The notes under the pieces are model-generated. The model had not been told where the DNA came from. It was given only the letters and a program-made list of their open reading frames with translations, and did not search any database. Position numbers and translations under genes: made by a program. This document shows positions 4,731 to 23,270 of a stretch of DNA of 49,065 nt, in pieces; positions within the stretch are counted from its first letter, which is position 1; the number at the start of each line of letters is the position of its first letter. Origin of the DNA: a virus; the IMG/VR virus record IMGVR_UViG_3300023181_000012; one strand, 5' to 3'.

Positions 4731-4940
4731 ATGACTATCAAAATGATATTCGAAAAAGTAGAAACTGATACCGGTGGCTATTGGGAACGTGCCAAAGTAC
4801 CCGGTGGCTGGTTGATCCGCGAAACTCAGGAAGTTTGTCAAGATTTGACTGCCCACGGTCGCGGTATGATGGAGTCAGGTTGGCAGTGGCGCACAGCTTT
4901 GGTGTTCATTCCTGATCCGAACCATGAATGGGTGGACTGA
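4731..4940 (+). CDS. hypothetical protein (69 aa)
   Basis: ATG lies 1 nt after the upstream stop. The track ORF begins at an upstream TTG. Confidence 0.5.
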   Translation: MTIKMIFEKVETDTGGYWERAKVPGGWLIRETQEVCQDLTAHGRGMMESGWQWRTALVFIPDPNHEWVD

Positions 4941-4970
4941 GAAGTCTTAAAACATCGTGAAATAAACCGA

Positions 4971-4990
4971 ATTCTGTTCTATAATTAGAC
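4971..4990 (+). promoter_or_regulatory. predicted promoter (TATAAT at 4980-4985)
   Basis: attctgttcTATAATtagac. The ATTCTGTT...ATTAGA context also occurs at 3701-3720. It lies 30 nt upstream of the RBS of the next gene. Confidence 0.45.
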
Positions 4991-5021
4991 ATCATCAATC
5001 GAAACATAAACGGAGAAAATC

Positions 5022-5543
5022 ATGGCCCAAGACGAAACCCTGAAAGTTGAACTGACCCCGGAAGAGAAAGAAGAAGCCCGGGTCAAGGCCGAAGCGACTG
5101 TTGCCGAATGGTTCGACGCAGCAGCAAAGCTGGCGGTCCTGAAAGAACAGGAAATGAACCTGCGCAATGAAGTGGTTCGCTACTACTTCCCGAACGGCCT
5201 GAAAGAAGGTACGAACAAAGCCGATCTGCCTGAAGGATGGGGCATGACCGTCACCGGCGTTATCAATCGCAAGATCGATGTTGCGGTCAAGGACGCCGTC
5301 CATGCTCAACTGGTGGAGGAATTCCAGTTCGATTCCGGCGAAGCCATCAAGTATAAGCCGGAGCTCGATGTCCCGGTTTATCGCCTGATGCAGAAAGCCG
5401 TGATCGAAACTACCGGCGATAATCAAGAGAAGGCCCGCCGCTTCCTGAAGCTGTTCGAGTCGATGTTGATCGTGACGGATGGATCACCACAGGTCAAGCT
5501 GACCGAGCCGAAGAAGCCTAAAGCCAAAGTGAGCACCGTATGA
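5022..5543 (+). CDS. hypothetical protein (173 aa), acidic coiled-coil N-terminus
   Basis: ORF with a GGAG RBS. No family was recognised. Confidence 0.7.
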   Translation: MAQDETLKVELTPEEKEEARVKAEATVAEWFDAAAKLAVLKEQEMNLRNEVVRYYFPNGLKEGTNKADLPEGWGMTVTGVINRKIDVAVKDAVHAQLVEEFQFDSGEAIKYKPELDVPVYRLMQKAVIETTGDNQEKARRFLKLFESMLIVTDGSPQVKLTEPKKPKAKVSTV

Positions 5544-5746
5544 TTACCGACTACGCCGGTGTTATCGACGGTCTTTCCGCGATTCTTCGTGAAGAAATGT
5601 CCCGTCTCAGCCGCGAGGAAACTCAACCTTCCCGCGACCCCGATCAATCTGACGATTACATCAAGTCGCAACGTACCAAAGTAAGCAAACTTCGCGCAAT
5701 CCGCGAAGAACTTGAAATCATCGCAACCAAGTCGACGGCGGTCTAA
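5540..5746 (+). CDS. hypothetical protein (68 aa)
   Basis: ATGA start/stop overlap with the upstream gene. Confidence 0.55.
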   Translation: MITDYAGVIDGLSAILREEMSRLSREETQPSRDPDQSDDYIKSQRTKVSKLRAIREELEIIATKSTAV

Positions 5747-5747
5747 T

Positions 5748-5984
5748 ATGAAATTCGACGAACTGGAAGATAAGTGCCGGCCTTTGGAAGCAGTAATACT
5801 TTCTGCTTCCAAAATGATAATCGGCTACCAAAGCATGTTCGACGCAGCCGGGATATCAGGCGATTATGTCGAAATGGACCGCTACCGCGAAATGATGAAA
5901 ACTCAAATCGACATTCAGTGCGATGCGAAAATTTCTCAGTTTCGCCTGATTAACCAGTGGAAGAAGGAAGGGGCAGGACGATGA
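5748..5984 (+). CDS. hypothetical protein (78 aa)
   Basis: ATG lies 2 nt after the upstream stop. Confidence 0.5.
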   Translation: MKFDELEDKCRPLEAVILSASKMIIGYQSMFDAAGISGDYVEMDRYREMMKTQIDIQCDAKISQFRLINQWKKEGAGR

Positions 5985-6247
5985 GTAAGAAAGACAAAAA
6001 CTTCTGGCTCGGCGTCCTGGCGTTCTTCTTGCTCTATACCTTCCTGTCATCATGGATGCAAAAGAGCGACGAAGAAGCCAAGGAAGCCGAAGCTTTCGGG
6101 AACGGCGTCGCTCAAGGTATCGCGATGGAAGTCAAACTCAACAAAGCTCGTAGCGCTAGCAATGCACTCGAGTGGTGGGTTGGCTCCGACGAAATCGGGG
6201 CGGTCCGTGAACGTCTCTGCCGCAACTACTATCCAAAGGTGAAATAA
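5981..6247 (+). CDS. hypothetical membrane-anchored protein (88 aa)
   Basis: ATGA overlap with the upstream gene. The N-terminal segment FWLGVLAFFLLYTFLSSW is hydrophobic. Confidence 0.55.
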   Translation: MSKKDKNFWLGVLAFFLLYTFLSSWMQKSDEEAKEAEAFGNGVAQGIAMEVKLNKARSASNALEWWVGSDEIGAVRERLCRNYYPKVK

Positions 6248-6528
6248 TGAAAATTTCTGACTTGTATAAAAAGATCGACAGCCTTAAAACCAAACGCCAT
6301 CGCTTGAAAAAGGCGATGGAATATGTCCGCGTCTTCGAATACGAAACCCCGAAGCCGGCTGTTGGTGAAAAGACGACGCCTATCATGGTCGTCAGCGACT
6401 GGTTCGACTGCCCGATTGATGTTGCAGTGACAATGATGCAAACGATCGTCCTTGTCTTACGTGCCGAATGTCAGAACCTAGCCGAAGAACTGGGCGTCGA
6501 GCACGAAGAACTTCCACTGGACGAATAA
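6247..6528 (+). CDS. hypothetical protein (93 aa)
   Basis: AAGGTGA RBS and a TAATG overlap. Confidence 0.6.
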   Translation: MKISDLYKKIDSLKTKRHRLKKAMEYVRVFEYETPKPAVGEKTTPIMVVSDWFDCPIDVAVTMMQTIVLVLRAECQNLAEELGVEHEELPLDE

Positions 6529-6530
6529 TC

Positions 6531-6785
6531 ATGAGCCACAAACCTGATTGTAATCTATGGATGCCGGGGACTGCTGGGACCGACGCCGATTACTGCAACT
6601 GTCATGAATTACCGGAGTTGATCCAACCTGAACATGTGGCCATCGATAAACCTCGTCCCGAATTCTTGGACCTAGCCCTGAAATGCGGCGCTGATTTGAC
6701 TGGAAAGCCCGATGGTTACGAAGCAGTAACTGTCGTCTTTTCGATTGAAGCTTGGGCAAAGTTCGATCTGGCCAATCGAAAATAA
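6531..6785 (+). CDS. hypothetical protein (84 aa)
   Basis: ATG lies 2 nt after the upstream stop. The track ORF extends upstream in an Arg-rich, unlikely leader. Confidence 0.5.
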   Translation: MSHKPDCNLWMPGTAGTDADYCNCHELPELIQPEHVAIDKPRPEFLDLALKCGADLTGKPDGYEAVTVVFSIEAWAKFDLANRK

Positions 6786-6794
6786 CCACAAGAA

Positions 6795-6830
6795 AAGCTG
6801 AGTATTCTAGCAGGACTTTGATATAATAGG
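6795..6830 (+). promoter_or_regulatory. predicted promoter (TATAAT at 6822-6827)
   Basis: ttgaTATAATAGgatac matches the recurring TATAATAG motif. It is intergenic, upstream of the recombination module. Confidence 0.5.
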
Positions 6831-6851
6831 ATACTCAACCAAGGGGATAAC

Positions 6852-7583
6852 ATGGCACTTGAATTTACTACAACCGAGGAACTGACCGATGTCTCCGGCA
6901 TCAAGGTTCTGGCATACTCGGAATCGGGAGCCGGTAAAACGGTACTCTGCGCGACTGCCCCGGCTCCGATTATGCTGATGGCTGAAGGGGGTGCTCTGTC
7001 GTTGCGCGAAGCCAACCTGAAACGCATCTTCGGGGATGATCTGGAAGCGGCCGGCATCACCTCCAACATCCCAACGATCATCATCAGTACCGTCAAGGAT
7101 TTGGAAGACGCATACGAGTGGTTGACCTCGGCCAAGGAAATGGAACAGTTCGAAACCATCTGCCTTGACTCCTTCACGGAGATTGCCGAGAAAGTTCTGG
7201 TCAATGCCAAGCGGCTGGCCAAAGACCCTCGTCAGGCTTACGGGGATATGGCAGAAAAGATGATCGAACTTGCTAAGAAGTTCCGGGATATCCCCGGCAA
7301 GAATGTCGTCTTTCTGGCAAAGATGGAAAAGAGCAAAGATGAAGTATCGGGCATCATGTTGTATGGTCCAATGATGCCGGGTAAACAAACCGGACCACAG
7401 TTGCCGTACCTTTTTGATGAAGTTTTTCGTATGGGGGTGGGGAAAGAAAAAGACGGAACAATTTACCGGTTCGTTCAGACCGGAGCAGATATGCAGTACA
7501 CAGCGAAGGACCGTTCGGGGGCACTCGACCCGATTGAATACCCCCACTTGGGGATGATCTTTAACAAAATCAAAGGAATATAA
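6852..7583 (+). CDS. RecA-fold ATPase, AAA_24 / Sak4-like single-strand annealing protein
   Basis: Walker A motif SESGAGKT is present. The Walker B-like ICLDSFTEI and the overall pattern are typical of phage AAA_24 proteins. The gene is immediately followed by a DUF669-like gene, as is usual for this family. Confidence 0.75.
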   Translation: MALEFTTTEELTDVSGIKVLAYSESGAGKTVLCATAPAPIMLMAEGGALSLREANLKRIFGDDLEAAGITSNIPTIIISTVKDLEDAYEWLTSAKEMEQFETICLDSFTEIAEKVLVNAKRLAKDPRQAYGDMAEKMIELAKKFRDIPGKNVVFLAKMEKSKDEVSGIMLYGPMMPGKQTGPQLPYLFDEVFRMGVGKEKDGTIYRFVQTGADMQYTAKDRSGALDPIEYPHLGMIFNKIKGI

Positions 7584-11464: not shown

Positions 11465-12130
11465 ATGGGTAAGTACGACTTTCAAGGCAAATGGGCCATC
11501 ATCGACCGGGAGGCTATGAAGTTTGTGGCCATCGCTAACGGGCATGAATTGGCCACATTGATCGCGGATATCGCATCGGTGGAAACCACCATCGTATCTT
11601 TCCCGCTCGATGTTCAGCGTCATTTTTCCCACTTCTCGGCGTTGGAAATGAAAATGCTTCACAAGAACACCACCGGGATTCCGACGGTCCCCGGCTCGGT
11701 ACTGAGCTACGGAAGCACGATCAAGGATTGCTATGATCTGGCAGTCAACCAAATTCCGGTCGACACCCGTACCGTGTTCGAACTCAACGCCGAGATTGCG
11801 AAACTGCCACCGCCTGAAGAATCGGACCATAAGACCAAAACGCCGCCATTCTTGACCAAGTTGTCCGACGCGCAGAATTATCCTGCGACGAGTACTGTCA
11901 AGTCGGCCATCCCTAAAGTACCTCGCGCCGCAGCATCGCCGGGTGCGGCCCCATCCAAAGGGGCAACAGGTAAAGTCTGGACGATCGCCGACCGGGTCCG
12001 CGCCGAATCGGGTAACAGTCCGGTAGATAAAACCCTCCGTGCGAAGATCATCGCCGCGTGTGAGGCCGAAGGTATCAACGCAGGAACCGCAGCAACGCAA
12101 TACGGGAAATGGAAAGCAACCCAATCCTGA
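11465..12130 (+). CDS. hypothetical protein with shared C-terminal VW-IAD...TQY-W module (paralog 1)
   Basis: AGAGGA RBS. The C-terminus KVWTIADRV...RAKIIAACEAEGINAGTAATQYGKWK aligns with the C-terminal regions of 12245..12751 and 47962..48840. Confidence 0.7.
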   Translation: MGKYDFQGKWAIIDREAMKFVAIANGHELATLIADIASVETTIVSFPLDVQRHFSHFSALEMKMLHKNTTGIPTVPGSVLSYGSTIKDCYDLAVNQIPVDTRTVFELNAEIAKLPPPEESDHKTKTPPFLTKLSDAQNYPATSTVKSAIPKVPRAAASPGAAPSKGATGKVWTIADRVRAESGNSPVDKTLRAKIIAACEAEGINAGTAATQYGKWKATQS

Positions 12131-12244: not shown

Positions 12245-12751
12245 ATGAAAACCTCCCGCGTACTGTTTGCAACCGCCATGATGGCCTGCCTGATGTCCCC
12301 GACCGATGGCGAAGCCTCGACCAATGCCGGCGCCGCTCCGACCGCGATCCCGCCAGCACCGGTGAAAGCCCCGACCAAAGCCGAGCAGAAAGCCGCCGAC
12401 AAGAAAGTCAAGGACGACGCCAAGGCCAAGGACAAAGCCGAGAAAGAAGCCAAGGCCAAGGAAGCCGCCGCAGCCAAGACCGAAAAAGTCGAGCAGAACG
12501 GCGTCACCCGCCCGGCCTCCGGCAAGACCAAACTGGTGTGGGATATCGCCGACGCCATGTCGAAAGAACTGAAAGCGCCGGTCACCCGCAAAGCCGTCAC
12601 CGACGCCCTGATCGCGGCGCCGCACCTGCTGGTCATCGGTACCATTCATACCCAGTACGGTAAATGGCGCAAGTTCCACGGTCTGGTGAAAGAAGTCGCT
12701 GCTCCTGCTGAAGCGCCAGCGCCGGCCGGCGAAGCCCCAGCCGCCGAGTAA
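12245..12751 (+). CDS. hypothetical protein with hydrophobic N-terminus, Lys/Ala-rich tract and shared VW-IAD...TQY-W module (paralog 2)
   Basis: AAGGAA RBS. This frame was chosen over three other open frames in the same interval because it carries the conserved module (KLVWDIADAM...TQYGKWRK). Confidence 0.65.
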   Translation: MKTSRVLFATAMMACLMSPTDGEASTNAGAAPTAIPPAPVKAPTKAEQKAADKKVKDDAKAKDKAEKEAKAKEAAAAKTEKVEQNGVTRPASGKTKLVWDIADAMSKELKAPVTRKAVTDALIAAPHLLVIGTIHTQYGKWRKFHGLVKEVAAPAEAPAPAGEAPAAE

Positions 12752-12768: not shown

Positions 12769-12809
12769 AGCGGGGCCGTCCCCTCACAATACGGCCCCGC
12801 TTTCTTTTT
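12769..12809 (+). terminator. strong rho-independent terminator
   Basis: AGCGGGGCCGT-(11 nt)-ACGGCCCCGCT forms a perfect 11-bp stem, followed by TTCTTTTT. Confidence 0.85.
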
Positions 12810-12858: not shown

Positions 12859-13569
12859 ATGCTGAACAAGCAAATCCCCATCAAACAGGACTTGGGCCAC
12901 CCCAACTCCTTGGCAGTAAACTCGATCTTCTATACCATTCAGGGTGAGGGTCCGTTCGCCGGAACCCCGGCAGTCTTCGTTCGTCTGGCCGGCTGCAACC
13001 TGCAATGCCCCGATTGCGATACCGAATATGGATTGTGGAAGGTAATGTCGGTTAGCGACATTCTGGAGGCGATCGCCGAAGTAACGCCAGAAACCAATCG
13101 GGTTCGCTGCCCGTTGATCGTCATCACTGGCGGCGAGCCATTCCGCCAGAACATCCGCAAGCTGACTATCGCCCTGCTGGAAAATCTCTACCAGGTTCAG
13201 GTCGAAACCAACGGTACGCTTTTCGCCGATCTGGATTACGCGTTCGCGCATCATAGTTTCACGATCGTTTGCTCGCCGAAGGGTTCCAAGGTCAACGCAT
13301 TACTGTGGCCACATATCAAGGCGTTGAAATATGTCTTGAACGCGGATTCGCAGAATGCCGACGACGGCCTGCCAATTCTGGCGCTCGGTCACGGTACAAA
13401 ACAGGTCGCTCGTTGGCCTGAGCATTGGAAGGGTGAAGTCTACATCCAACCGGTCGACGTTCAAGACGAGAACGCAAACAAACGTCACCTGAAAGCCGCA
13501 GTCGATGCGTCGCTGAAGTTCGGTTATCGTCTGTGCCTGCAAGTTCACAAAATCATCGGGGTGGCATGA
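12859..13569 (+). CDS. queE: 7-carboxy-7-deazaguanine synthase (radical SAM)
   Basis: IFYTIQGEGPFAGTPAVFVRLAGCNLQCPDCDT contains the CX3CX2C radical-SAM motif in the QueE context, and ITGGEP follows. Confidence 0.85.
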   Translation: MLNKQIPIKQDLGHPNSLAVNSIFYTIQGEGPFAGTPAVFVRLAGCNLQCPDCDTEYGLWKVMSVSDILEAIAEVTPETNRVRCPLIVITGGEPFRQNIRKLTIALLENLYQVQVETNGTLFADLDYAFAHHSFTIVCSPKGSKVNALLWPHIKALKYVLNADSQNADDGLPILALGHGTKQVARWPEHWKGEVYIQPVDVQDENANKRHLKAAVDASLKFGYRLCLQVHKIIGVA

Positions 13570-13751
13570 TGGCAAAAGCTCTTATCATTCCGGCGCCTAC
13601 TCGCCGGCTTATCATCGATCTGGAACCTTTCGAAGCTGAAACGCTGAAGGCCGTTATGCAAAATCCTCTGTACGACGGCGCCGAGTCGGCGGAAATGCGT
13701 GCAATTCGTGAAGTTATTTGGAACGCCTTACACAAAGATGGGGTGGCGTAA
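13566..13751 (+). CDS. hypothetical protein (61 aa) inside the deazaguanine operon
   Basis: The start overlaps the queE stop (ATGATG). The stop overlaps the next start. Confidence 0.5.
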   Translation: MMAKALIIPAPTRRLIIDLEPFEAETLKAVMQNPLYDGAESAEMRAIREVIWNALHKDGVA

Positions 13752-13999
13752 TGAACCAAACCCGCGTGGGCAGTTTGATCGAAGCCGTCATCAATACGGT
13801 GATCGGCTTCGTCATTAACTTCACCGCCAACATGTTCATCTTCCCCCTGTTTGGTTTCAATATCAACTTGGGGCAAAACTTGGTCATGGGCCTGATCTAT
13901 ACGGCGATCAGTGTCGCCCGGTCCTATACCATTCGTCGCTGGTTCAATGCGTACCTGCATCGTCTGGCCTTAAAAATCGAAAAGGAACTCACCAAATGA
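13751..13999 (+). CDS. small membrane protein (82 aa, two predicted TM segments) inside the deazaguanine operon
   Basis: TAATG overlap with the upstream gene. The segments IEAVINTVIGFVINFTANMFIF and LVMGLIYTAISV are hydrophobic, followed by RSYTIRRWF. Confidence 0.6.
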   Translation: MNQTRVGSLIEAVINTVIGFVINFTANMFIFPLFGFNINLGQNLVMGLIYTAISVARSYTIRRWFNAYLHRLALKIEKELTK

Positions 14000-14775
14000 A
14001 AACCAAAGCACTCGTCGTCCTGAGCGGCGGCCAAGATTCAACCACCTGCCTGTTTTGGGCTAAGAAGTATTTCGACGAGGTCCATGCGATCACGTTCGAT
14101 TATGGCCAGCGTCACGCCATCGAAATCGAAGCCGCGAAGGAAGTGGCCTTGATGGCTTCGACGGCCTCCCACGAGATCGTTCTGGTACCTGATATCCTCC
14201 GGTCGACCTCCCCGCTGACCTCCGGCGCCGAACTGGAACAGTACGAAAATCACGACCAAATGGAAGCCGTCATCGGCGACCGGGTCGAGAAGACTTTCGT
14301 TCCGATGCGTAATACCCTGTTCTTGACGATCGCTATGAACCGCGCTGTCGACCTGGGTTGCTCGACCATCGTGACCGGCATCTGTCAGGCCGACAACGCG
14401 AACTACCCGGACTGCACCGACGAGTTCCGTCGTCAGTTTCAAAATATGGCAAACGAATCACTGGGACTGCGCGAGCATGAGTCGCAATATTTCAAAATCG
14501 GCGCCCCGCTCATGAACATGAGCAAAGCCGAGTCGGTCGCACTGGCCATGACCCTACCCGGCTGCATGGAAGCACTGGCCTACAGCCACACCAGCTACGA
14601 CGGTAAGTATCCGCCGACCGACATGAACCACGCAAACGTCTTGCGCGCCAAGGGCTTCGAAGACGCCGGCGTTCCTGATCCGCTGGTTGTTCGGGCGTGG
14701 AAAGAAAATCTGATGAACCTGCCGGATACCCGCAATTATCTGATGCTGGTAGCTGACATGCCGGAGGATGAATAA
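13996..14775 (+). CDS. queC: QueC-family PP-loop ATPase (7-cyano-7-deazaguanine synthase homolog), atypical C-terminus
   Basis: The PP-loop VLSGGQDSTTC is present, along with FDYGQRH, FVPMRN and NYPDC. The canonical C-terminal CX8CX2CX2C zinc motif is replaced by S..D..H..V (TSYDGKYPPTDMNHANVLR). Confidence 0.8.
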   Translation: MKTKALVVLSGGQDSTTCLFWAKKYFDEVHAITFDYGQRHAIEIEAAKEVALMASTASHEIVLVPDILRSTSPLTSGAELEQYENHDQMEAVIGDRVEKTFVPMRNTLFLTIAMNRAVDLGCSTIVTGICQADNANYPDCTDEFRRQFQNMANESLGLREHESQYFKIGAPLMNMSKAESVALAMTLPGCMEALAYSHTSYDGKYPPTDMNHANVLRAKGFEDAGVPDPLVVRAWKENLMNLPDTRNYLMLVADMPEDE

Positions 14776-15344
14776 TGTATAAGTCCACCAAAAAATACGG
14801 CCATGATGTCGGTCTGTCCGCGGTATTCCGCCAACATCGGGCGACTCATTCCCATTGCTCCAAGCTCCACGGCTACGCGCTGGCGGTCAAGCTGGTTTTC
14901 GGCTGCGCGGAACTTGACGACAAGAACTGGGTGATGGACTTCGGCGGCCTGAAGTACATCAAAAAGTTCCTGACCAATACGTTCGACCATAAAATGATCG
15001 TCGCCGAAGATGATCCGATGCTGCCGGCTTTCCGCATGTTTCACGATCAAGGTATCGCCGATCTTGTGACCATGCCCAATGTCGGCTGCGAAGCGTTCGC
15101 GAAGTATATTTTCGACTTCGTGGAAGCCTTCATTCGCCATAGCGTCCAGACTGAACGCGTCTGGATCGAATCGGTCGAAGTCATGGAACATGGCGCCAAC
15201 TCGGCTATCTATGTTCTTGAACCCAAGGCTCTGACCGAGTTCAAGAACATCGTGAGCGACTTTTCGGTGAAGCTAAACGAAATCAAAGCCGTCGGCGATG
15301 AGTTCTCGGCAAACATCAAATCTTTCATGGAAGTGGTTAAATAA
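14775..15344 (+). CDS. queD: 6-carboxy-5,6,7,8-tetrahydropterin synthase (PTPS/QueD family) with C-terminal extension
   Basis: FRQHRATHSHCSKLHGYAL...NWVMDFGGLK...FDHK matches the viral PTPS/QueD pattern. Confidence 0.75.
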   Translation: MYKSTKKYGHDVGLSAVFRQHRATHSHCSKLHGYALAVKLVFGCAELDDKNWVMDFGGLKYIKKFLTNTFDHKMIVAEDDPMLPAFRMFHDQGIADLVTMPNVGCEAFAKYIFDFVEAFIRHSVQTERVWIESVEVMEHGANSAIYVLEPKALTEFKNIVSDFSVKLNEIKAVGDEFSANIKSFMEVVK

Positions 15345-15925
15345 TGTCGCAACTGATTAATACTGACCAAGACGTAATTAAAGCCCTGTTGTACCGCGTG
15401 ATCGGCGAGCAGGAACGCGGGGGTCTGATCGAGACCCCCGACCGGGTTATCAAAGCCTGGCGCGAATGGACTGCCGGCTACGAACAGAACGGCGCCGAAT
15501 CGGACGCTAGCATTCTGAAAGTCTTCGACGACGGCGCCGAGCAGTGCGACGAAATGGTCATCGTCAAAGACATTCCGATCTACTCCAAGTGTGAACACCA
15601 CTTGGCCGATATCTTCGGAACCGCGACGATCGCCTATATCCCGAATGGCCACATCGTAGGCCTGTCCAAGTTGAGCCGGCTCGCCGATAAATACGCTCGT
15701 CGTCTGCAAGTGCAAGAGCGTCTTACCAACCAGATCGCCAATGCCCTTTTCGAAGGTATCGGTGCAAAGGGCGTGGGCGTCATCATCAAGGCGCGCCACA
15801 TGTGCATGGAATCGCGCGGTACTCGTCAACAGGGTCATCACACGATCACGTCGGCGCTGCGCGGGGTAATGAAGGATGAACCGGCCACCCGGGCCGAGTT
15901 CTTAATGTTTGCTAACTCGAAATAA
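15344..15925 (+). CDS. folE: GTP cyclohydrolase I
   Basis: ETPDRV, the catalytic CEHHL motif, GLSKLSR and QVQERLT are present. Confidence 0.85.
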   Translation: MSQLINTDQDVIKALLYRVIGEQERGGLIETPDRVIKAWREWTAGYEQNGAESDASILKVFDDGAEQCDEMVIVKDIPIYSKCEHHLADIFGTATIAYIPNGHIVGLSKLSRLADKYARRLQVQERLTNQIANALFEGIGAKGVGVIIKARHMCMESRGTRQQGHHTITSALRGVMKDEPATRAEFLMFANSK

Positions 15926-15934
15926 GGAACTGAA

Positions 15935-16837
15935 ATGAATAACAAAGACATTTATGCCGGTCATGACAATTTGGCCGAAATGATTAAAGGTCATATCGGC
16001 AACTGGCGCGACGCGCTGAACCATCAAAAGATCGATCAGCACGACACTTCATATCTGGACCATGAACTCTCGGCACTGGATCAGATCGAAAAGGCCGCGT
16101 CGGAGGTAGCCCAACCGAGCTACGTTCAACAAGCCATTCGCACCGAATCCCGGCCGGAATCCCTGAAAGTCAATCAGTTCGTTTTGGTCGATCTGATGCG
16201 CATGATTGTCGCGCTGGGATCGGCCGCCGATCTGGTAAAGAAAAACATCTTTTACGGTAAGCCGATTGAAGTCGGACTGTACCATGACTTTCTGACCAAT
16301 CTGAGCGCGACCGTGGAAAAGCAGCTGGAAATGATCGACCAAGTCGATGACGAAACAATCAGTCGTATGTACGATATTGGCGAACTGGCAGGTATCACTT
16401 CCGACGTGACGAAGCGTTTGACCGGCCTGACCGAACATATCCCGGTCCGCCTGTTGCATTGCGCGCTCGGCATTCATACCGAAGCCGGCGAAATGTTCGA
16501 AAACCTGCTGGAAGCCTACGAATGCGGTGAAGTCGACGAACTGAACTTCGCCGAAGAACTGGGCGATGTCGACTGGTATAAAGCCATCGGCCATGATGCG
16601 ACCGGCGTCAGCGAAGAAACGCTGCGCGAGGCGAATATCGCAAAGCTGCGCAAACGCTACCCCGAGAAGTTCACCGACGAATCTGCGCTCAATCGTGATT
16701 TGTCGGGCGAGCGTGGTGTGCTGAACGAACACCTGGCCTTGACTCAAGGTGTCGCAGTGTACGACAAGCCGGTCGAATATAAAGCCGGCGATACGGTAAA
16801 ACTGCCCGATGGTGTGGGCGGAACCATTATCAGCTAA
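15935..16837 (+). CDS. MazG-like nucleoside triphosphate pyrophosphohydrolase domain with ~150-aa uncharacterised N-terminal region
   Basis: The C-terminal half carries HTEAGEMFE...AEELGDVDWY...NIAKLRKRYPEKF, typical of all-alpha MazG NTP-PPases. Confidence 0.65.
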   Translation: MNNKDIYAGHDNLAEMIKGHIGNWRDALNHQKIDQHDTSYLDHELSALDQIEKAASEVAQPSYVQQAIRTESRPESLKVNQFVLVDLMRMIVALGSAADLVKKNIFYGKPIEVGLYHDFLTNLSATVEKQLEMIDQVDDETISRMYDIGELAGITSDVTKRLTGLTEHIPVRLLHCALGIHTEAGEMFENLLEAYECGEVDELNFAEELGDVDWYKAIGHDATGVSEETLREANIAKLRKRYPEKFTDESALNRDLSGERGVLNEHLALTQGVAVYDKPVEYKAGDTVKLPDGVGGTIIS

Positions 16838-16855
16838 ACCAGTCTGACCCAGTCC

Positions 16856-16884
16856 AAAATGGCCGCTATCATGTGGCCATTTTT
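16856..16884 (+). terminator. rho-independent terminator (A/T-flanked, potentially bidirectional)
   Basis: AAAATGGCC-(10 nt)-GGCCATTTTT. Confidence 0.7.
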
Positions 16885-16905
16885 CTACTTCAAACAAGAT
16901 TCACA

Positions 16906-16934
16906 TTGATGGGCTAGGCTCGTCCTGATATAAT
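16906..16934 (+). promoter_or_regulatory. predicted promoter
   Basis: TTGATG, then 17 nt, then TATAAT (16929-16934), followed by AGAACAT. Confidence 0.6.
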
Positions 16935-16962
16935 AGAACATTAGAACAGATTAGGTGACCAC

Positions 16963-17268
16963 ATGGATATCCCCGATCCAGTCGACGAAAGCGAAGTCGC
17001 TGAAATGAAGCAACTGTATGATTACGGTCCAGAACGGGCCTGCCTTGATCGCATGATTTGGTTGGAAGTTGAACATGCGAGACTCACCGATAGCGAAAAC
17101 TATTTGATGGAAGCTCTACAATACGTGAAGCCTGATCTGATCGAAAAGGTAACTATTGCCGGTCAAGAGGCTTTGCGCGAAGCCCTGAAAGAACTCGCCA
17201 AGATGGCTCGTACCACCGAACAGCTGGACTTTGTACATCAATTGAATTGCCGGGGGTTGTTGAAATGA
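16963..17268 (+). CDS. hypothetical protein (101 aa)
   Basis: ORF with an AGGTGA RBS. Confidence 0.65.
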   Translation: MDIPDPVDESEVAEMKQLYDYGPERACLDRMIWLEVEHARLTDSENYLMEALQYVKPDLIEKVTIAGQEALREALKELAKMARTTEQLDFVHQLNCRGLLK

Positions 17269-17531
17269 ACAAGCTTAATATTGTCGTAGCGTATGAAATC
17301 CATCATGCTCGTCATTTTGCCGAAGTTGAAAAACAATGGGCTCGTAAAGATTACAAAATAGTATTAAACCAAACAGACTACCTGCGCGGTTTGGTCAATG
17401 TGACTGTATGGGTTTTGGAAGCACCACGGTTCCATCCGACCCCGTACCAACTTCATCAACGCCAAATTATGGAATATGTACTAAAGCCGCAGCTTCATCG
17501 TATTAAAGTGGAACGAGTGACCCTGCCATGA
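17265..17531 (+). CDS. hypothetical protein (88 aa)
   Basis: ATGA overlap with the upstream gene. Confidence 0.55.
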   Translation: MNKLNIVVAYEIHHARHFAEVEKQWARKDYKIVLNQTDYLRGLVNVTVWVLEAPRFHPTPYQLHQRQIMEYVLKPQLHRIKVERVTLP

Positions 17532-18427
17532 AAATCTACATCGCCGGCCTCTATACTTCAAACTTCCATAAAACCGGAAACTACTATGCAAAACTTACCG
17601 ACCAAGAAAAAGCCGGTCACGATGGCTGTATCGACCGTCTGGAGTCCTACCACTATATTGGGAAGCAATCTTACGTGGATCGTATCCGCGAGCAGGGCGA
17701 TAAAGTTTTCCTCGATTCTGGCGCGTTTTCCGCTTTCACCCTTGGTAAGGAAATTGATCTACCTGCATACTGTGACTACATACACCGGAATGCCGACATT
17801 ATCGACATGGCCTCTGTGCTCGATGGCATCGGTGATCCTCAACGTACCTATGAAAACCAATGCGAAATGGAACGACTTGGAACTCGACCATTACCTTGCT
17901 TTCACTATGGCGAAGATGAAAGATACCTTGAGTACTACATTGCGAATTATGAGTACATCACCATCGGCGGTATGGTTCCGATTTCCACCCCTCAACTAAT
18001 CTTATGGCTTGACAGAATATGGGCAAAATATCTGACCGACGGAAGCGGGCGAGCACGCTTGAAAGTACACGGATTCGGCCTTACTTCGGTTCCCCTGATG
18101 ACTCGGTATCCGTGGTATTCGGTCGACTCGTCATCATGGATTCAACTGGCAGCGCACGGAAACATCTTCATACCGAAATTCGGTCAATTCGCGATCAGCG
18201 CAAGGTCGCCAAACGTAAAAGTTGAGGGACAACATGTTGACACTTTACCTCCTGTTGTTAGAGCTCGCTTGGAGCAAGAACTTATCGACGAAGGCTACGA
18301 GCCCGACCGCATGCGAGACCTCAACTACCCCCGATGGGCGTACAACGTCTACGCCTACGGGGAACTTGCCCGAATGATGACTGCACTTGAAAAACCATTC
18401 CAGATCAACCAAGAGGAGTTATTCTGA
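17528..18427 (+). CDS. dpdA: DpdA-family DNA-guanine transglycosylase (TGT-like)
   Basis: FLDSGAFS corresponds to the TGT DSGGFQ catalytic Asp region. ITIGGMVP and HGFGLTS...YSVDSSSW are also present. The 299-aa size and the position next to preQ0-pathway genes fit phage DpdA. Confidence 0.75.
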   Translation: MKIYIAGLYTSNFHKTGNYYAKLTDQEKAGHDGCIDRLESYHYIGKQSYVDRIREQGDKVFLDSGAFSAFTLGKEIDLPAYCDYIHRNADIIDMASVLDGIGDPQRTYENQCEMERLGTRPLPCFHYGEDERYLEYYIANYEYITIGGMVPISTPQLILWLDRIWAKYLTDGSGRARLKVHGFGLTSVPLMTRYPWYSVDSSSWIQLAAHGNIFIPKFGQFAISARSPNVKVEGQHVDTLPPVVRARLEQELIDEGYEPDRMRDLNYPRWAYNVYAYGELARMMTALEKPFQINQEELF

Positions 18428-18627
18428 TGCCTTTCGCATATTCGTTACACCGGATACTGTCCGAGCTTGAAAAGCCGCCAACAAATTTTGGCGGGGATAC
18501 CTTTGTCATGCGCAAAGTTCGCGACGAAGACCTGCGCGCGTTGATTGAAGACTGGGGGCGGCTCGACAAAATCGTCCGGGCCAATGCGGCTTATCAACAC
18601 GGTGGTAAAGCTGAGGTGGTGCGATGA
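18427..18627 (+). CDS. hypothetical protein (66 aa)
   Basis: The start overlaps the dpdA stop (TGATG). Confidence 0.55.
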   Translation: MPFAYSLHRILSELEKPPTNFGGDTFVMRKVRDEDLRALIEDWGRLDKIVRANAAYQHGGKAEVVR

Positions 18628-19789: not shown

Positions 19790-20049
19790 GTAATACAGTG
19801 CAACGGGTACCGACTGAATCGGAAAACAAGAATTGGGCGATCTTCGAATATCGCGACGAGTTTGCCGTATGCCATTTGGGTACGATCAAGGTTGCTGGTC
19901 AAGACCTGTTCCAAACCGGCTGGGTGATCGATCACATTTGCCCGACTTTGGATCAGGCTGTCACCTGCCAGACTAACGAAATCAAAAAGGCAAAAGTGCG
20001 CAATGCCCAAATCATGGCCGATATGGCTGCTCGCGCTCGTCGCAAATGA
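19786..20049 (+). CDS. hypothetical protein (87 aa)
   Basis: ATGA overlap with the upstream gene. Confidence 0.55.
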   Translation: MSNTVQRVPTESENKNWAIFEYRDEFAVCHLGTIKVAGQDLFQTGWVIDHICPTLDQAVTCQTNEIKKAKVRNAQIMADMAARARRK

Positions 20050-20402
20050 TTCTGGTCATTCAATGTTCGCAGTTGAAAAGCAACCTTGAGAAGGGGGCCG
20101 CCCGTGAGATATACAAGGGTCAGGTTCTACTTCTCGGTTTGCGTTTCGCTGACAGATGGAACCTTGAACCTTATATATTGTCAGGAAAGTACGGTATAAT
20201 CAAACCTGACGATGTGATCGAAAACTATGATTTGAAATCGCCCGGGTATGATGGTCCTTGGCCAACCGAGGTTGGGTATTGGTTGGGAGGCAAGAAGTAT
20301 TTTAAAAACGCTCCGTCTAATCTGCAACCTCTGATAACGGGTCATCGCGGATATGGTGATATGAAAAATTGGTTAGGAAAGTGTATAAATGAGCCGATTT
20401 GA
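20046..20402 (+). CDS. hypothetical protein, DUF6884-like
   Basis: ILVIQCSQLK...EIYKGQ...ILSGKYGIIKPDDVIENYD resembles the DUF6884 pattern recalled from memory. The gene overlaps the polymerase start by 14 nt. Confidence 0.5.
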   Translation: MILVIQCSQLKSNLEKGAAREIYKGQVLLLGLRFADRWNLEPYILSGKYGIIKPDDVIENYDLKSPGYDGPWPTEVGYWLGGKKYFKNAPSNLQPLITGHRGYGDMKNWLGKCINEPI

Positions 20403-22554
20403 CGCCCTCGGTATGTTTTGGGAAGACCTTGCCCCGGTAAAGCCACCGAAAAAGGAAAAGGTCAAGGCTGTTCCACCTGAGCCGGTATGGCTTGCTGCTA
20501 CCTATTTACCGGGCCTTCACGAAGCGCGGAATATGATCCTTGATCTATTCACGGTAGAGGAGCTAATTGAGGCGTCACGGACCGGTGAAAGGCTTAACTA
20601 CGATATCGAATGCTATCCAAATTACTTCCTTTTGACCGCGAGGGGGATCGATGGGAAAAAATGCGTATGCTTTGAAGCCCATGACGACGAAGCGTTGAGC
20701 GAAGAAGATCAGCAAAAGCTTACTTGGGTTCTGGAAAACTTCACCATGGTCGGATTCAATATCCTGCACTATGACAATACGATGGCCACAATAGCGGCTG
20801 CCGGCGCTACGACCGAGCAGCTTTGGCTGGCGAACTGTAAGATATTCGAAAAGGCTGACCGCAAGCCTGGCGATACCGGAATGCCGCGACCGAAGTATAA
20901 AGCGCACCAAATCCTGAAAGCGTTTAAGGTCAAGAAGTTGGCTATCGATTCCATCGACTTGATACAGTACACCGCAGGGGCGCCGTCGCTCAAGAAACTT
21001 GCCGGCCGCATCCATTCCCGGCGAATGCAAGACCTCCCATTCGTACCCGGAACCTATCTTACGCCTGACCAAAAACTGATCGTCAAATGGTACAACATTA
21101 ACGATCTGGATATTGTCGAACTCGTCTATGCGTGGTATCTGGAACGGGTTCAGTTGCGCGAGAAGTTGTCGACCAAATACAACATCGATCTTCGTTCCAA
21201 GTCGGATGCCCAAATGGCAGAAGCCATTATGGAGTCGGAAATCAAGAAGTTGACCAAGCAGACGTTTATCGTCAAAGATAAAGTCGAGGTCGGCAAAACC
21301 TTTCAGTACAAAAAGCCGGCTTTCATCGACTTCCATACCGAACAGATGCAAGAGGCTTTGAAAGTCGTTCTTGATTCGGAAATGGTCATATCGGCAAAGG
21401 GTTCGGTCATACTTCCCCAGTCGCTGAAAGACCTTGAAATCCGAATCGGCAAAGGTCTTTATACCTTCGGTATCGGCGGGCTGCATAGTAACGAGAAGTC
21501 GGTAGGTCATGTATCTGACGAAAAGTATCAGATTGTCGATATTGATGCGACTTCGTTCTATCCGTTCCTGATGCTCAATGCCGGGATGACTCCCAAGAAT
21601 CTCGGCAAGGCGTTCTTGGTCGTTTATAACGGCGTAGTGGTTGACCGAGTTAATGCCAAGAAAGCCGGCGATATCATCGCGGCCGAAGGGTTGAAGATCA
21701 CCGCCAACGGAACTTACGGCAAACTGGGTTCCCGTTATTCGATCATGTATGCCCCTGAGCTGCTTATTCAGGTAACCATAACCGGCCAACTAGTTCTGTT
21801 GATGTATATCGAAATGATGGAGTATCAAGGTTTCGAAGTCATCAGTGCCAATACCGATGGTATCGTCTGCATGGTTGAACGTGAGCGCAAGCAGGAATTC
21901 GACGATCTGGTCAAGTATTGGGAATCGAGGACCGGCCTGAGCACCGAAGAAACCCTGTATGAAGCCGTTTATAGCCGCGATGTAAATACATATGTGGCCA
22001 TCTATACCGAGCCTGAAAAGCAGAAGGGGAAACTGTTCAAGAGTAAAGGAAACATTTTCAACATTCGTCATCCTGATAAATCGTCGGATGCTAGTACCGT
22101 CGATTTGAAAAAGAACCCTGTCACGGAGATTTGCACGTATGCTATCATCGAAAAAATACTACATGGGACTCCCATCGAAACCACGATCCGAGAGTGCACA
22201 GACGCTTCTAGATTCGTCGAAGTCAGGGAGGTCAAAGGAGGTGGCGTTTACCTTGGGGCCGAAGGATACATTGATTATCTCGGTAAAACGGTCCGGTGGT
22301 ATCATGCGACAGGTGTTGGATCAGATGCACGAGTCGTCTACGCAAAGTCAGGAAACAAAGTTGCAAATTCTGACTCTAGTAAGCCGTTGATGACTCTTCC
22401 TGTCGACGGAGTTCCCGACGACATAAACTACGAGTGGTATGAACAGAAAACCCGAGACAATATGATCGTTATGGGTTATACTAAGGGTGAAGTGTCGGCG
22501 GATTACGTCGATGAAACCGAAGATGATGAACAACTTGAGGAAGAAACAACATGA
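20389..22554 (+). CDS. family B DNA polymerase with 3'-5' exonuclease domain
   Basis: Exo I is YDIE, Exo II is FNILHYD and Exo III is YNINDLD. Pol motif A is DIDATSFYP, motif B is KITANGTYGKLG and motif C is SANTDGI. Confidence 0.85.
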   Translation: MSRFDALGMFWEDLAPVKPPKKEKVKAVPPEPVWLAATYLPGLHEARNMILDLFTVEELIEASRTGERLNYDIECYPNYFLLTARGIDGKKCVCFEAHDDEALSEEDQQKLTWVLENFTMVGFNILHYDNTMATIAAAGATTEQLWLANCKIFEKADRKPGDTGMPRPKYKAHQILKAFKVKKLAIDSIDLIQYTAGAPSLKKLAGRIHSRRMQDLPFVPGTYLTPDQKLIVKWYNINDLDIVELVYAWYLERVQLREKLSTKYNIDLRSKSDAQMAEAIMESEIKKLTKQTFIVKDKVEVGKTFQYKKPAFIDFHTEQMQEALKVVLDSEMVISAKGSVILPQSLKDLEIRIGKGLYTFGIGGLHSNEKSVGHVSDEKYQIVDIDATSFYPFLMLNAGMTPKNLGKAFLVVYNGVVVDRVNAKKAGDIIAAEGLKITANGTYGKLGSRYSIMYAPELLIQVTITGQLVLLMYIEMMEYQGFEVISANTDGIVCMVERERKQEFDDLVKYWESRTGLSTEETLYEAVYSRDVNTYVAIYTEPEKQKGKLFKSKGNIFNIRHPDKSSDASTVDLKKNPVTEICTYAIIEKILHGTPIETTIRECTDASRFVEVREVKGGGVYLGAEGYIDYLGKTVRWYHATGVGSDARVVYAKSGNKVANSDSSKPLMTLPVDGVPDDINYEWYEQKTRDNMIVMGYTKGEVSADYVDETEDDEQLEEETT

Positions 22555-23270
22555 AAACAGGCGTGATATTGGATAGTGGTAAATATGTCATCAACTTTGA
22601 TGACTCGACCGGTGAAATGAAATTTTTCCGCAACGGTGAAGACTGGCCGGCTGGGAATGAGTTGCGCCACGCTAAAGTAGTGGCGGCGTTGGTTCAACGG
22701 GTGATCGAGCTGGAATCGAAGCCGATTCCGAACGAGAACCTGACCGTATTTGCTCAACCCCTGAGCGATCCACCGTTCTTCAAAATGGACGATAAACCGG
22801 TCACCCCCGACATCGAGGAAGACCTCGGCCGCATGATGGTCGAAATTGTCGCCGCGTTTGACTTCATCAAGAATGGTCCGGTGATCGATATGCCGACCGC
22901 CGATCTGGATAAAATGTTCGACGACAAAGTCTGGAAGCTGACGCCGCGCATTCAAACATTGGTCGCCAATCGCGTGATGGCAAAGCATCCGTTTTCGGTT
23001 CTGGCTGATATGGAATTCAACGGTTACAACGGTCGTTGCAACGGGTCTGAACGATTCAACATCGCAAGCATGAATTTGTTGCAAATTCCGGTCGACATGC
23101 GCGAAGTTCTGAATCTCGGTCGTCTCAACACTGCCGAAGGCGCTGCAATCAACATGGAAGCCTTGGCCAAAATGACCACATCCATGCAGATCATTATGAA
23201 CCTCTACGGTTGGTCGTGGGACGATATCAAACTGAAGGCGCGACAGCAAATGGCGAAAGCCGGCGTGTAA
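22551..23270 (+). CDS. hypothetical protein (239 aa)
   Basis: ATGA overlap with the polymerase gene. It is the last gene of the rightward unit. Confidence 0.65.
   Translation: MKTGVILDSGKYVINFDDSTGEMKFFRNGEDWPAGNELRHAKVVAALVQRVIELESKPIPNENLTVFAQPLSDPPFFKMDDKPVTPDIEEDLGRMMVEIVAAFDFIKNGPVIDMPTADLDKMFDDKVWKLTPRIQTLVANRVMAKHPFSVLADMEFNGYNGRCNGSERFNIASMNLLQIPVDMREVLNLGRLNTAEGAAINMEALAKMTTSMQIIMNLYGWSWDDIKLKARQQMAKAGV

Follow-up and report, generated by a model that had tools for sequence, protein, structure and literature searches.

A candidate base-tailoring gene accompanies a predicted DpdA1-type 7-deazaguanine DNA-modification system in the genome of an uncultured siphovirus

The presence of genes resembling those of the preQ0 pathway next to a transglycosylase gene raises the question of whether this virus modifies its DNA, and with which base. 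The window, meaning the whole 49,065-nt stretch of DNA that was analysed, is a complete, circularly assembled genome of 48.9 kb with an identical 127-nt stretch at both ends, and contains terminase, portal, capsid, tail and lysis genes. It is very probably the whole genome of an uncultured metagenomic siphovirus, with a 7-deazaguanine DNA-modification system of the DpdA1 type encoded in its replication module. Gene-family identities, the DpdA fold, the DpdA1 subfamily and synteny were established for the window itself. [quoted passage not shown] All features described here are on the plus strand.

The first gene, queE (12859–13569, 236 aa), encodes a predicted radical-SAM 7-carboxy-7-deazaguanine (CDG) synthase (PHROG QueE-like, 9.6e-50). 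Its top PDB sequence matches are all QueE (6nhl, 8e-15; 4njg; 5tgs), and it contains CNLQCPDC, of the form CX3CX2C (C46/C50/C53), GGEP, and QVHK at the C-terminus. All NCBIfam QueE models matched at 1e-15 to 1e-23, yet below their cut-offs, and the NCBIfam models for QueD and DpdA likewise all scored under the curated cut-offs. QueC (13996–14775, 259 aa), a predicted 7-cyano-7-deazaguanine (preQ0) synthase, matched Pfam QueC (4.6e-51), PHROG QueC-like (1.3e-57) and TIGR00364 (159.5, above the cut-off of 150.3). QueD (14775–15344, 189 aa), a predicted 6-carboxytetrahydropterin synthase of the PTPS family, matched Pfam PTPS (5.3e-16) and PHROG QueD-like (1.4e-38), with the CPH4 synthase 7v0f as its closest PDB match. 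The GTP cyclohydrolase I gene folE (15344–15925, 193 aa) contains CEHHL and HMCMESRG, and matched Pfam GTP_cyclohydroI (1.9e-63), PHROG GTP cyclohydrolase (2.9e-70) and the NCBIfam FolE models above their cut-offs (for example 209 versus 162).

The product of dpdA (17528–18427, 299 aa) matched phrog_887 (4.6e-77) and contains FLDSGAFS, HGFG and DSSSW. It belongs to subfamily DpdA1, because it is 53% identical to the DpdA of phage 9g (2e-111) and 50% identical to those of Seuratvirus and of iggy. In its AlphaFold2 model (pLDDT 89.8), the best 50 Foldseek PDB matches were all tRNA-guanine transglycosylases (TGTs; E 2.6e-7, probability 1.0, TM 0.57), and D63, D99, GGM147–149 and D200 are invariant among 30 homologues. 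The profile match, the 50–53% full-length identity to phage DpdAs characterised by experiment and the fold thus place 17528–18427 in the TGT/DpdA superfamily, in agreement with the earlier reading of a TGT-like, DpdA-sized protein, and together with the pathway genes they support DNA hypermodification by the preQ0 route.

From queE to folE every junction overlaps, by 1–4 nt. The four pathway genes had been described as consecutive and coupled; the coupling holds, but two ORFs intervene between queE and queC. The first (13566–13751, 61 aa; phrog_7471, 1.3e-9) is translationally coupled between its neighbours and has same-slot homologues in the related clusters L011 (75% identity), L009 and L007 and in BcepGomr (gp36). 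The second (13751–13999, 82 aa) encodes a DUF7220 small membrane protein (Pfam, 6.1e-29; PHROG 4276, 2.4e-29); the related clusters L001–L012 yielded no homologue of it, and its gene is an accessory one, inserted where the gene content varies. Downstream of folE lies the gene for a MazG-like nucleotide pyrophosphohydrolase (15935–16837, 300 aa; PHROG_229, 2.3e-35). Pfam MazG matched at just 0.039, over residues 180–246. The ExxE...EELGD metal motifs can be seen in the translation. An additional N-terminal segment of about 55 aa is present, of which residues 9–55 resemble the N-terminus of BcepGomr gp30. The gene has the same position in the nearest relatives, L009–L012, whereas it follows polB in BcepGomr and ART.

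Two intrinsic terminators lie where the preliminary description had put them, and proved on folding to be genuine hairpins with T-runs. The one at 12770–12809, upstream of queE, closes the preceding gene (12245–12751); its hairpin (−24.1 kcal/mol, z −6.06; equalled by none of 200 shuffles) is followed on the 3' side by the tail TTTCTTTTT. The other, at 16856–16884 (−16.6 kcal/mol, z −6.83), closes the unit from queE to the MazG-like gene. A consensus terminator scanner with a loop limit of 8 nt passed over both, missing the former because its loop measures 11 nt. The two had been thought to bracket the island; the second instead splits it, into a unit from queE through the MazG-like gene and a unit of dpdA, the clamp gene and polB. 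A sigma-70-like match at 16906–16934 (TTGATG-17-TATAAT, 10 of 12 consensus positions, extended −10 TG) is a candidate promoter for the latter.

Small ORFs also flank dpdA. That at 16963–17268 (101 aa) occupies a variable slot; it gave no match in Pfam, NCBIfam, PHROG and PADLOC profile scans, and is weakly similar only to a 91-aa ORF upstream of dpdA in L009 (1e-5). The next (17259–17531, 90 aa; no family match) ends in a stop that shares 4 nt with the start of dpdA, and a homologue takes its place in L007 and L008 (35% identity, 1e-9); in ART, BcepGomr and GottfriedDienst, too, a small ORF overlaps the start of dpdA, with no detectable similarity to it. The third (18427–18627, 66 aa; no family match) is coupled to dpdA and the clamp gene and is weakly similar to the same-slot ORF of L012 (3.5e-7).

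We considered which base these genes would supply. Six-frame tblastn of the window revealed neither QueF nor a Gat domain, DpdA2 or YhhQ, nor was ArcS found in it. PHROG and Pfam profile scans, which covered most of the other ORFs and every one of 90 aa or more outside the virion module, gave no tailoring genes of this kind. With none of QueF, Gat, ArcS and YhhQ detected, the base exchanged for guanine is most likely preQ0. In the proposed pathway, FolE would convert GTP to H2NTP, QueD would convert H2NTP to CPH4, QueE would form CDG from CPH4, and QueC would carry CDG through ADG to preQ0. After replication, DpdA would replace guanine by preQ0 within short sequence motifs of the phage DNA, presumably by a TGT-like double displacement with D200 as the nucleophile and D63 as the general acid/base. 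The resulting dPreQ0 would protect the injected genome against restriction enzymes and some Cas nucleases. Enzyme activities, inserted base, target motif, extent and anti-restriction role are here carried over from characterised relatives, and the extent would be that of DpdA1 phages, 0.1–30% of G. A co-transcribed DUF6884 protein may then hydrolyse dPreQ0 to dADG, partly or wholly.

That protein (20046–20402, 118 aa; Pfam DUF6884, 1.2e-9, 38.9 bits versus a cut-off of 30) calls for a softer form of the earlier statement on the lack of tailoring enzymes, as this candidate is encoded beyond the region then described. Its gene lies in the dpdA operon between the clamp and PolB genes, overlapping both flanking ORFs. 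The final virion base could accordingly be dADG rather than dPreQ0, with DpdA inserting preQ0 and the DUF6884 protein flipping the base out and hydrating its nitrile to an amide; we regard this as possible but somewhat unlikely. Bacterial DpdC acts in this way once DpdA and DpdB have acted. A DUF6884 domain is present in DpdC (PMC12235509), which in vitro turns dPreQ0-DNA into dADG-DNA (PMC10164549). The window protein passes the Pfam threshold of this domain family, keeps the conserved CxxxK (C7–K11) and LS[AG]xxG (L45–G50) motifs (PMC11701544), and aligns with phage DUF6884 proteins in hhalign (probability 99%, E 3.4e-18); its translationally coupled gene is retained in L009, L010 and L011. 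DUF6884 genes also lie within dpdA clusters of at least three other, independent phage lineages; the gene order is dpdA-DUF6884-YhhQ in IMG/VR contig L021, ParB-like, dpdA, DUF6884, YhhQ in Fusobacterium phage phiFN37, and DUF6884, queE, queC, queD, folE, dpdA in Acinetobacter phage HD01. Among 13 DUF6884-positive phage records 2 contain dpdA, versus a background of 236 in 50,697 (Poisson P = 0.0018). However, the window protein is no orthologue of DpdC: the PADLOC DpdC model matched at only 0.0056 over about 55 residues, and the best PADLOC model was PDC-M57A (2.9e-9), as it was for ten relatives picked mostly on length. It is compacted, lacking the central helical insert of the family, and its gene is separated from dpdA by 1.6 kb, at a site that relatives use for other accessory genes (YAcAr). 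DUF6884 further occurs in phages without dpdA nearby (Naby, TMCBR2, BDU-MI-1, Mx4), and it is missing both in MED16, a phage that contains dADG, and in the first 45 kb of phage 7-11. We retain dPreQ0 as the most likely base, and the DUF6884 protein as a candidate for its conversion to dADG.

A second alternative, which we consider improbable, is that the variant QueC, the variant QueD or both do not function as the canonical enzymes do, so that the pathway halts early (CDG or ADG being inserted to give dCDG or dADG) or needs host-made precursors. QueC lacks all four zinc cysteines, C...CxxCxxC being replaced by S...YPPTDMNHANV, identically in 120 of 120 nearest clusters. These cysteines are conserved in QueC, QatC and Cap9, and QatC requires them for function (PMC13639016). 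QueD reads CSKLHGY (CxxxHGY), the motif noted earlier and indeed present, but the canonical signature is CxxxHGH (PMC10516641), and the first zinc histidine is missing in most of its clade; in the absence of QueC, CDG can be inserted by DpdA2 (PMC10516641). Against this, the QueC PP-loop (SGGQDS) and the catalytic Cys28, Asp71-His72 and Glu106 of QueD are intact, QueD also containing NWVMDFG, and the QueC AlphaFold2 model is confident and QueC-like (pLDDT 86.8; closest structures QueC 2pg3 and 3bl5, E ~1e-15). Both variants are strongly conserved, always inside queE-queC-queD-folE-dpdA clusters, in phages whose hosts range over Alpha-, Beta- and Gammaproteobacteria and include a cyanobacterium. 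The HGY form recurs in iggy, ART, BcepGomr and four metagenomic relatives, and the window QueC falls in a large phage clade with iggy among its members (59–61% identity to iggy QueC, depending on the aligner). The predicted preQ0-pathway activity of both variants leans on iggy, whose Pseudomonas host is also able to make preQ0. The DNA of iggy, a phage with both variants, carries dPreQ0 exclusively, at ~97% of GA sites (PMC10484667).

It is very improbable that the genes instead serve to raise queuosine in host or phage tRNA with no modification of DNA, even though homologues of DpdA are labelled 'queuine tRNA-ribosyltransferase' in PHROG (including phrog_887) and GenBank. The 53%-identical 9g enzyme modifies E. 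coli DNA with preQ0, and queuosine was not restored by it in E. coli delta-tgt (PMC6884629). A Pfam profile scan found no TGT domain in the window DpdA, nor is one present in any of the 120 listed among its 4471 database homologues, and its sequence lacks the zinc motif CxCxxC...H of TGTs and bacterial DpdA (PMC10164549). Consistent with a role in DNA modification, dpdA is located among replication genes, and ORF family scans gave no match to queF, queA or queG, with queF also missing from the tblastn results. A bacterial Dpd restriction-modification island or prophage remnant, rather than lytic-phage counter-defence, is hinted at by weak PADLOC matches to the DpdA and DpdC models but is extremely improbable, given the absence of dpdB and dpdD–K in a PADLOC scan of ten island and neighbouring ORFs, a self-contained phage genome with identical ends and no bacterial flanks seen, and a DpdA of 299 aa that is of the phage type, DpdA1, and has neither the zinc site nor the large insertions of its bacterial counterpart.

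The gene set and order are known from hundreds of phages (PMC6884629, PMC10484667, PMC10516641). In the window, the order Cas4 exonuclease, helicase, queE, queC, queD, folE, dpdA, clamp, PolB matches that of BcepGomr, ART, iggy, 9g, GottfriedDienst, HD01 and seven metagenomic relatives, and its queE–queC–queD–folE–dpdA–clamp–PolB part is the conserved Queuovirinae/BcepGomr/iggy layout. The virus is therefore an ordinary added member of an already described group. The exception is the small DpdC-family gene near dpdA, which might turn the base into its amide form.

The first and last 127 nt of the window (1–127 and 48939–49065) are identical (100%), an overlap typical of a circular assembly, and we therefore regard the window as a phage genome that is complete at 48,938 bp. 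The plus strand carries genes for a primase, Sak4, SSB, a Cas4-type exonuclease, a helicase, a clamp and PolB, and the minus strand carries the terminase, portal, scaffold, capsid, tail and lysis genes. The capsid protein is nearest to those of the Achromobacter JWX-like siphoviruses (51% identity). A megablast search of the 7-deazaguanine island (12859–18427) against 50,697 phage records did not reveal any close cultured relative at the DNA level, and returned only short folE and queC matches with a coverage of at most 7%. Five metagenome contigs, including one of 49,079 bp, carry a record of the identical QueC protein.

The ORFs of the island are densely packed on the plus strand at the positions given in the preliminary description. 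The genes queE, queC, queD and folE are located 1.6–4.7 kb upstream of dpdA on the same strand, in the order Cas4 exonuclease, helicase, queE, (small ORFs), queC, queD, folE, (small ORF), dpdA, (small ORF), clamp, PolB. This order is shared with the phages BcepGomr, ART, iggy, 9g, GottfriedDienst and HD01, and with seven metagenomic relatives. A Cas4 exonuclease-to-PolB layout containing the queE–dpdA genes has already been published (PMC10484667), and the system in the window is thus a further case of known biology. Both terminators that had been proposed to bracket the island are strong hairpins with T-tails, but the second (16856–16884) falls within it. This terminator is followed by a sigma-70-like site (16906–16934, consensus match), which suggests that the genes from queE to the MazG-like gene form one unit, and dpdA, the clamp gene and polB the next. 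Upstream of the island, and at the far end of the genome, the proteins encoded at 11465–12130, 12245–12751 and 47962–48840 share the C-terminal-domain families phrog_7864 and phrog_18634, and the 12245–12751 protein contains a Lys/Ala/Glu-rich, histone-H1-like stretch. In all relatives examined, homologs of these proteins are encoded immediately 5′ of queE; in iggy and HD01 they bear the annotation "transcriptional activator".

The key enzyme of the island is encoded at 17528–18427 (plus strand), and had been assigned to the TGT/DpdA superfamily from its motifs. The protein matched phrog_887, "queuine tRNA-ribosyltransferase" (4.6e-77), but not the Pfam TGT model, and the NCBIfam DpdA model gave 7e-4 only. 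Nothing better than a match over 25 residues to 7ui4, a bacterial DpdA (E 0.33), came from sequence and profile searches of the PDB. As these searches were too weak, the superfamily assignment was drawn from a fold search. The AlphaFold2 model (pLDDT 89.8) is a (beta/alpha)8 barrel with eight alternating strand–helix units, and its best 50 Foldseek matches in the PDB are all tRNA-guanine transglycosylases (probability 1.0, E down to 2.6e-7). Full-length comparison gave 53% identity to DpdA of phage 9g (E 2e-111) and 50% to that of a CAjan-type Seuratvirus (E 5e-106), and the protein is 50% identical to that of iggy; in all three systems DNA modification has been demonstrated by experiment (PMC6884629, PMC7544227, PMC10484667). 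The PHROG match, the 50–53% identity to characterized DpdAs and the fold together confirm the superfamily assignment. A database search returned 4471 homologs of the same size, and many of the 120 listed are on phage-sized contigs of ~40–60 kb. The "queuine tRNA-ribosyltransferase" label carried by homologs is misleading, and the assignment is of value for their annotation.

An alignment of 30 homologs showed that D63 (in FLDSGAF, together with F67), D99, G147–G148 and D200 (in VDSSSW) are invariant, and the D63 and D200 columns are conserved in more distant DpdAs as well. Their spacing is that of D95/F99, D130, G206/G207 and D256 in bacterial DpdA, an enzyme that requires D95 and D256 for catalysis (PMC10164549). 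The CxCxxC...H zinc motif, a conserved feature of TGTs and bacterial DpdA alike (PMC10164549), is absent from the translation of the window gene, which contains no Cys after residue 124; C124 is the sole invariant Cys among the 30 homologs. CxCxxC is also not seen in the aligned part of 9g DpdA, and the absence of the zinc site therefore looks like a trait of DpdA1 rather than a defect. A 458-aa protein of Vibrio phage VH7D, encoded in the folE–queF interval and presumed from its position only to be a DpdA2, had no match anywhere in the window at E ≤ 10. Based on sequence comparison with the DpdAs of 9g, Seuratvirus and iggy, and with this putative DpdA2, we placed the protein in subfamily DpdA1. 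The reading of the whole island as phage 7-deazaguanine DNA-modification genes is supported, with a system of the DpdA1 type.

The identities of the four genes upstream were upheld by profile searches, and PDB sequence searches agreed for QueC, QueD and QueE. The queE gene (12859–13569, plus strand; PHROG 9.6e-50) encodes a QueE-like radical-SAM enzyme with the CX3CX2C motif, with PDB sequence matches exclusively to QueE and scores below the cut-off of every NCBIfam QueE equivalog model. The folE gene (15344–15925, plus strand; Pfam 1.9e-63) encodes a GTP cyclohydrolase I scoring above the cut-off of the NCBIfam FolE models (TIGR00063, 199.8 against 181.6), with the zinc motifs CEHH and HxC present. 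In two related metagenomic loci (L007, 6601–7503; L008, 5647–6549), FolE is a 300-aa protein with a ~125-aa N-terminal extension fused to the cyclohydrolase domain.

QueC (13996–14775, plus strand) matched its Pfam family (4.6e-51) and scored above the curated cut-off of TIGR00364. It contains the PP-loop SGGQDS, and its structural model is confidently QueC-like, with 2pg3 and 3bl5 as the best Foldseek matches. However, all four Cys of the QueC zinc site (one Cys plus CxxCxxC, at residues ~195–225) are replaced, C...CGECPAC in B. subtilis QueC corresponding to S...TDMNHANV in the window. The replacement, YPP[TIL]xxNHxNVLRAxGF followed by a helical C-terminal extension, is present in QueC from iggy, ART, Rhizobium RHEph04, Sphingomonas MMDA13, Edwardsiella ZHS and Microcystis Me-ZS1, and CxxCxxC is absent in all 120 of the 120 nearest database clusters of the window QueC. 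The zinc Cys are kept in QueC from phiSM, GottfriedDienst, BcepGomr and Campylobacter CPt10. Both QueC and QatC have the zinc site as a conserved feature, and QatC depends on it for function (PMC13639016). The replacement is a real clade-level change, in which a large clade of phage QueC proteins has given up a zinc site otherwise conserved across the QueC/QatC/Cap9 family. We found no mention of this loss in the cited literature.

QueD (14775–15344, plus strand; Pfam PTPS 5.3e-16, PHROG 1.4e-38) also departs from its published signature, CxxxHGH, in which both His bind zinc (PMC10516641). The alignment shows no variation at the catalytic residues C28, D71–H72 and E106, but the window protein reads CSKLHGY. 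The second His is replaced by Tyr in the window QueD and in each of the seven clade members aligned (iggy, ART, BcepGomr and four metagenomic relatives), while HGH is retained in QueD of 9g and GottfriedDienst, which BLAST searches from the window QueD failed to detect. The same clade has a conserved "SHC" in the region of residues 18–34, and most of its members carry Trp or Pro where the His of the first zinc ligand would align. These features suggest a rearranged or lost metal site across a whole clade of phage QueD proteins. CSKLHGY differs, too, from the DpdL motif, LxxxHRHxF (PMC10516641).

The Pseudomonas phage iggy (Iggyvirus, Queuovirinae) is among the closest known systems. Its DNA contains dPreQ0, at GA motifs, as the sole modification (PMC10484667). 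iggy shares with the window the order queE, small ORF, queC, queD, folE, dpdA, small ORF, clamp, PolB, despite a nucleotide similarity of <10%. Its QueC is the nearest characterized homolog (59–61% identity, depending on the aligner) and its QueD is 54–55% identical, with the zinc-less form of QueC and the CxxxHGY form of QueD in both phages. Since iggy makes dPreQ0 with these two variants, we regard both as probably functional, although the Pseudomonas host of iggy can make preQ0 itself. iggy differs from the window phage in an additional C-terminal extension of ~100 aa in QueC, in the lack of a MazG-like gene in its island, and in the lack of a DUF6884 gene in the 16.8-kb region examined.

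The type DpdA1 systems are those of Enterobacteria phage 9g (dG+) and the CAjan/Seuratvirus phages (dPreQ0), which show the same replication-module synteny as the window, and QueE and FolE that are clearly orthologous to those of the window. Phage 9g carries a Gat-QueC fusion, accounting for dG+, whereas the window contains no Gat domain; GottfriedDienst, a Seuratvirus used here as a stand-in for CAjan, has YhhQ and a canonical four-Cys QueC, both of which the window lacks. The nearest cultured relatives by DpdA are Achromobacter phage vB_Ade_ART (75% identity by alignment, 73% by tblastn) and Burkholderia phage BcepGomr (61% and 60%). Both share the cluster order of the window, with MazG located after polB instead of in the island, and BcepGomr QueC differs from the window QueC in retaining CxxCxxC. 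We know of no measurement of the DNA modifications of either phage.

The remaining genes of the island include a MazG-like gene (15935–16837, plus strand; PHROG_229, 2.3e-35), the product of which scored below the Pfam MazG cut-off (0.039) and had no PDB sequence match, with the EAGE and EELGD motifs spotted by eye only. The gene lies between folE and dpdA in this lineage only. Elsewhere it follows polB, and it therefore looks like a part of the replication/nucleotide module rather than a step in the pathway. Residues 9–55 of the protein (15935–16100; phrog_24659, 5.7e-14) resemble the N-terminus of BcepGomr gp30, encoded directly 3′ of dpdA, and this small N-terminal domain appears to be mobile within these clusters. 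A 239-aa gene after polB (22551–23270) was rejected as a second MazG, having neither similarity to the MazG-like protein of the island nor metal motifs. Its product, with a short phrog_3052 match only, occupies the MazG slot of BcepGomr and ART, and is kept in three related loci (L006, L009 and L011).

The 61-aa ORF at 13566–13751 (phrog_7471) has homologs at the equivalent position in several relatives, gp36 of BcepGomr among them. DUF7220 (13751–13999) has no counterpart in the related clusters examined, and was taken to be an accessory insertion. The ORFs at 16963–17268, 17259–17531 and 18427–18627 (101, 90 and 66 aa) had no family match in Pfam, PHROGs or PADLOC, nor, for the first two, in NCBIfam, and their conservation in relatives is patchy. 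There is thus no basis for the earlier suggestion that these three could be new pathway components. Judging from their distribution among related sequences, DUF7220 and these three ORFs count as variable accessory elements, and so does the N-terminal extension of the MazG-like protein.

With respect to the base produced, the minimal FolE/QueD/QueE/QueC/DpdA set leads to dPreQ0, while Gat-QueC leads to dG+ and QueF to dPreQ1, and further derivatives are formed via DpdL, DpdM and DpdN (PMC6884629, PMC10516641). Six-frame tblastn searches of the window with VH7D QueF, the 9g Gat domain and YhhQ did not reveal any match, in agreement with the claimed absence of QueF and a Gat amidotransferase. PHROG and Pfam scans of most of the remaining ORFs, including all those of at least 90 aa outside the virion module, did not reveal a tailoring enzyme. 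As the nearest characterized QueC is from iggy, with solely dPreQ0 in its DNA, dPreQ0 is the default prediction, and by this analogy is most likely the base in the DNA of the window phage.

An alternative product is suggested by a 118-aa protein encoded at 20046–20402, between the clamp and polB genes, in an ORF that shares 4 nt with the preceding ORF and 14 nt with polB. The protein matched Pfam DUF6884 (38.9 bits against a cut-off of 30, E 1.2e-9), a domain of bacterial DpdC (PMC12235509), and also gave a weak YaaA/DUF328 match, the family in which earlier papers placed DpdC (PMC5699537, PMC12839542). It belongs to a narrow and compact subfamily, yet its hhalign alignment to typical DUF6884 proteins of phages runs from one end to the other (probability 99%, E 3.4e-18). 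It contains C7SQLK11 and L45SGKYG50, corresponding to the CxxxK and LSAxxG motifs predicted to form the site into which the DUF6884 family flips a base (PMC11701544). We hypothesized base flipping by this protein, with dPreQ0 leaving the duplex and its nitrile being hydrated, probably via the conserved Cys of CxxxK, to form dADG. A profile of the subfamily matched polyubiquitin in the PDB (E to 2e-16), and this match was discarded as a summed-repeat artefact (~6 bits per repeat).

This alternative is testable, and draws on the recurrence of DUF6884 genes inside the dpdA clusters of unrelated phages. In the IMG/VR contig L021, a dpdA (28% identical to that of the window) is followed by DUF6884 and a Vut_1/YhhQ preQ0-type transporter, and in Fusobacterium phage phiFN37 the order is ParB-like, dpdA, DUF6884, YhhQ. 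Moreover, dpdA is present in 2 of 13 cultured-phage DUF6884 records, compared with a background of 236 in 50,697 (Poisson P = 0.0018). IMG/VR scans with single DUF6884 proteins matched only L021 and two further contigs (L022 and L025). Against it, the 20046–20402 protein is not a DpdC orthologue: the PADLOC DpdC profile gave no full-length match (E 0.0056 over ~55 residues), and the best PADLOC model, for this protein as for ten relatives, was PDC-M57A. DUF6884 also occurs in phages without dpdA nearby (Naby, TMCBR2, BDU-MI-1 and Mx4), and the slot at 20046–20402 can carry a YAcAr protein instead in close relatives of the window phage. [quoted passage not shown] On balance, we consider dADG in the window phage possible but rather unlikely, and dPreQ0 remains the preferred prediction.

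The compact dpdA–DUF6884–YhhQ modules (phiFN37, 4724–7033, with the ParB-like gene first; L021, 3287–5606, with an unannotated gene 5′ of dpdA) look like a phage copy of bacterial dpdB–dpdA–dpdC plus a preQ0 transporter, and the transporter implies salvage of the base rather than synthesis. In the bacterial Dpd system (DpdA/DpdB/DpdC, Salmonella Montevideo), a TGT-fold enzyme with the same three Asp as the window DpdA inserts preQ0 into DNA, and a DUF6884-family protein is encoded alongside, as in the window (PMC10164549, PMC12235509). The window differs in that ten island and neighbouring ORFs gave no PADLOC match to the DpdB ATPase or the restriction genes dpdD–K, and its DpdA lacks a zinc site and is shorter by ~100 aa. 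Its 118-aa DUF6884 protein, compared with ~310 positions in the PADLOC DpdC profiles, is related only distantly. While bacterial Dpd marks self DNA for restriction, the window system would by analogy serve in counter-defence.

The window phage is one more uncultured member of a well-mapped class of anti-restriction DNA-modification phages, and its predicted modification is relevant to cutting, cloning or nanopore-sequencing its DNA. The side findings, namely the zinc-less QueC, the altered QueD and DUF6884, may matter more. A broader proposal, which we hold only tentatively, is that the small phage DUF6884 proteins are counterparts of DpdC, that phages with both dpdA and DUF6884 (this lineage, HD01, phiFN37 and L021) package dADG-containing DNA, and that the QueC and QueD variants belong to a separate version of the pathway. 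If true, the recurring pair of zinc-less QueC and CxxxHGY QueD would mark out a preQ0 pathway of a distinct phage type, and DpdA1-type phages would gain an enzyme so far missing for making dADG. DUF6884, found repeatedly within phage dpdA clusters, is a testable candidate for the phage dADG step that the cited papers left open.
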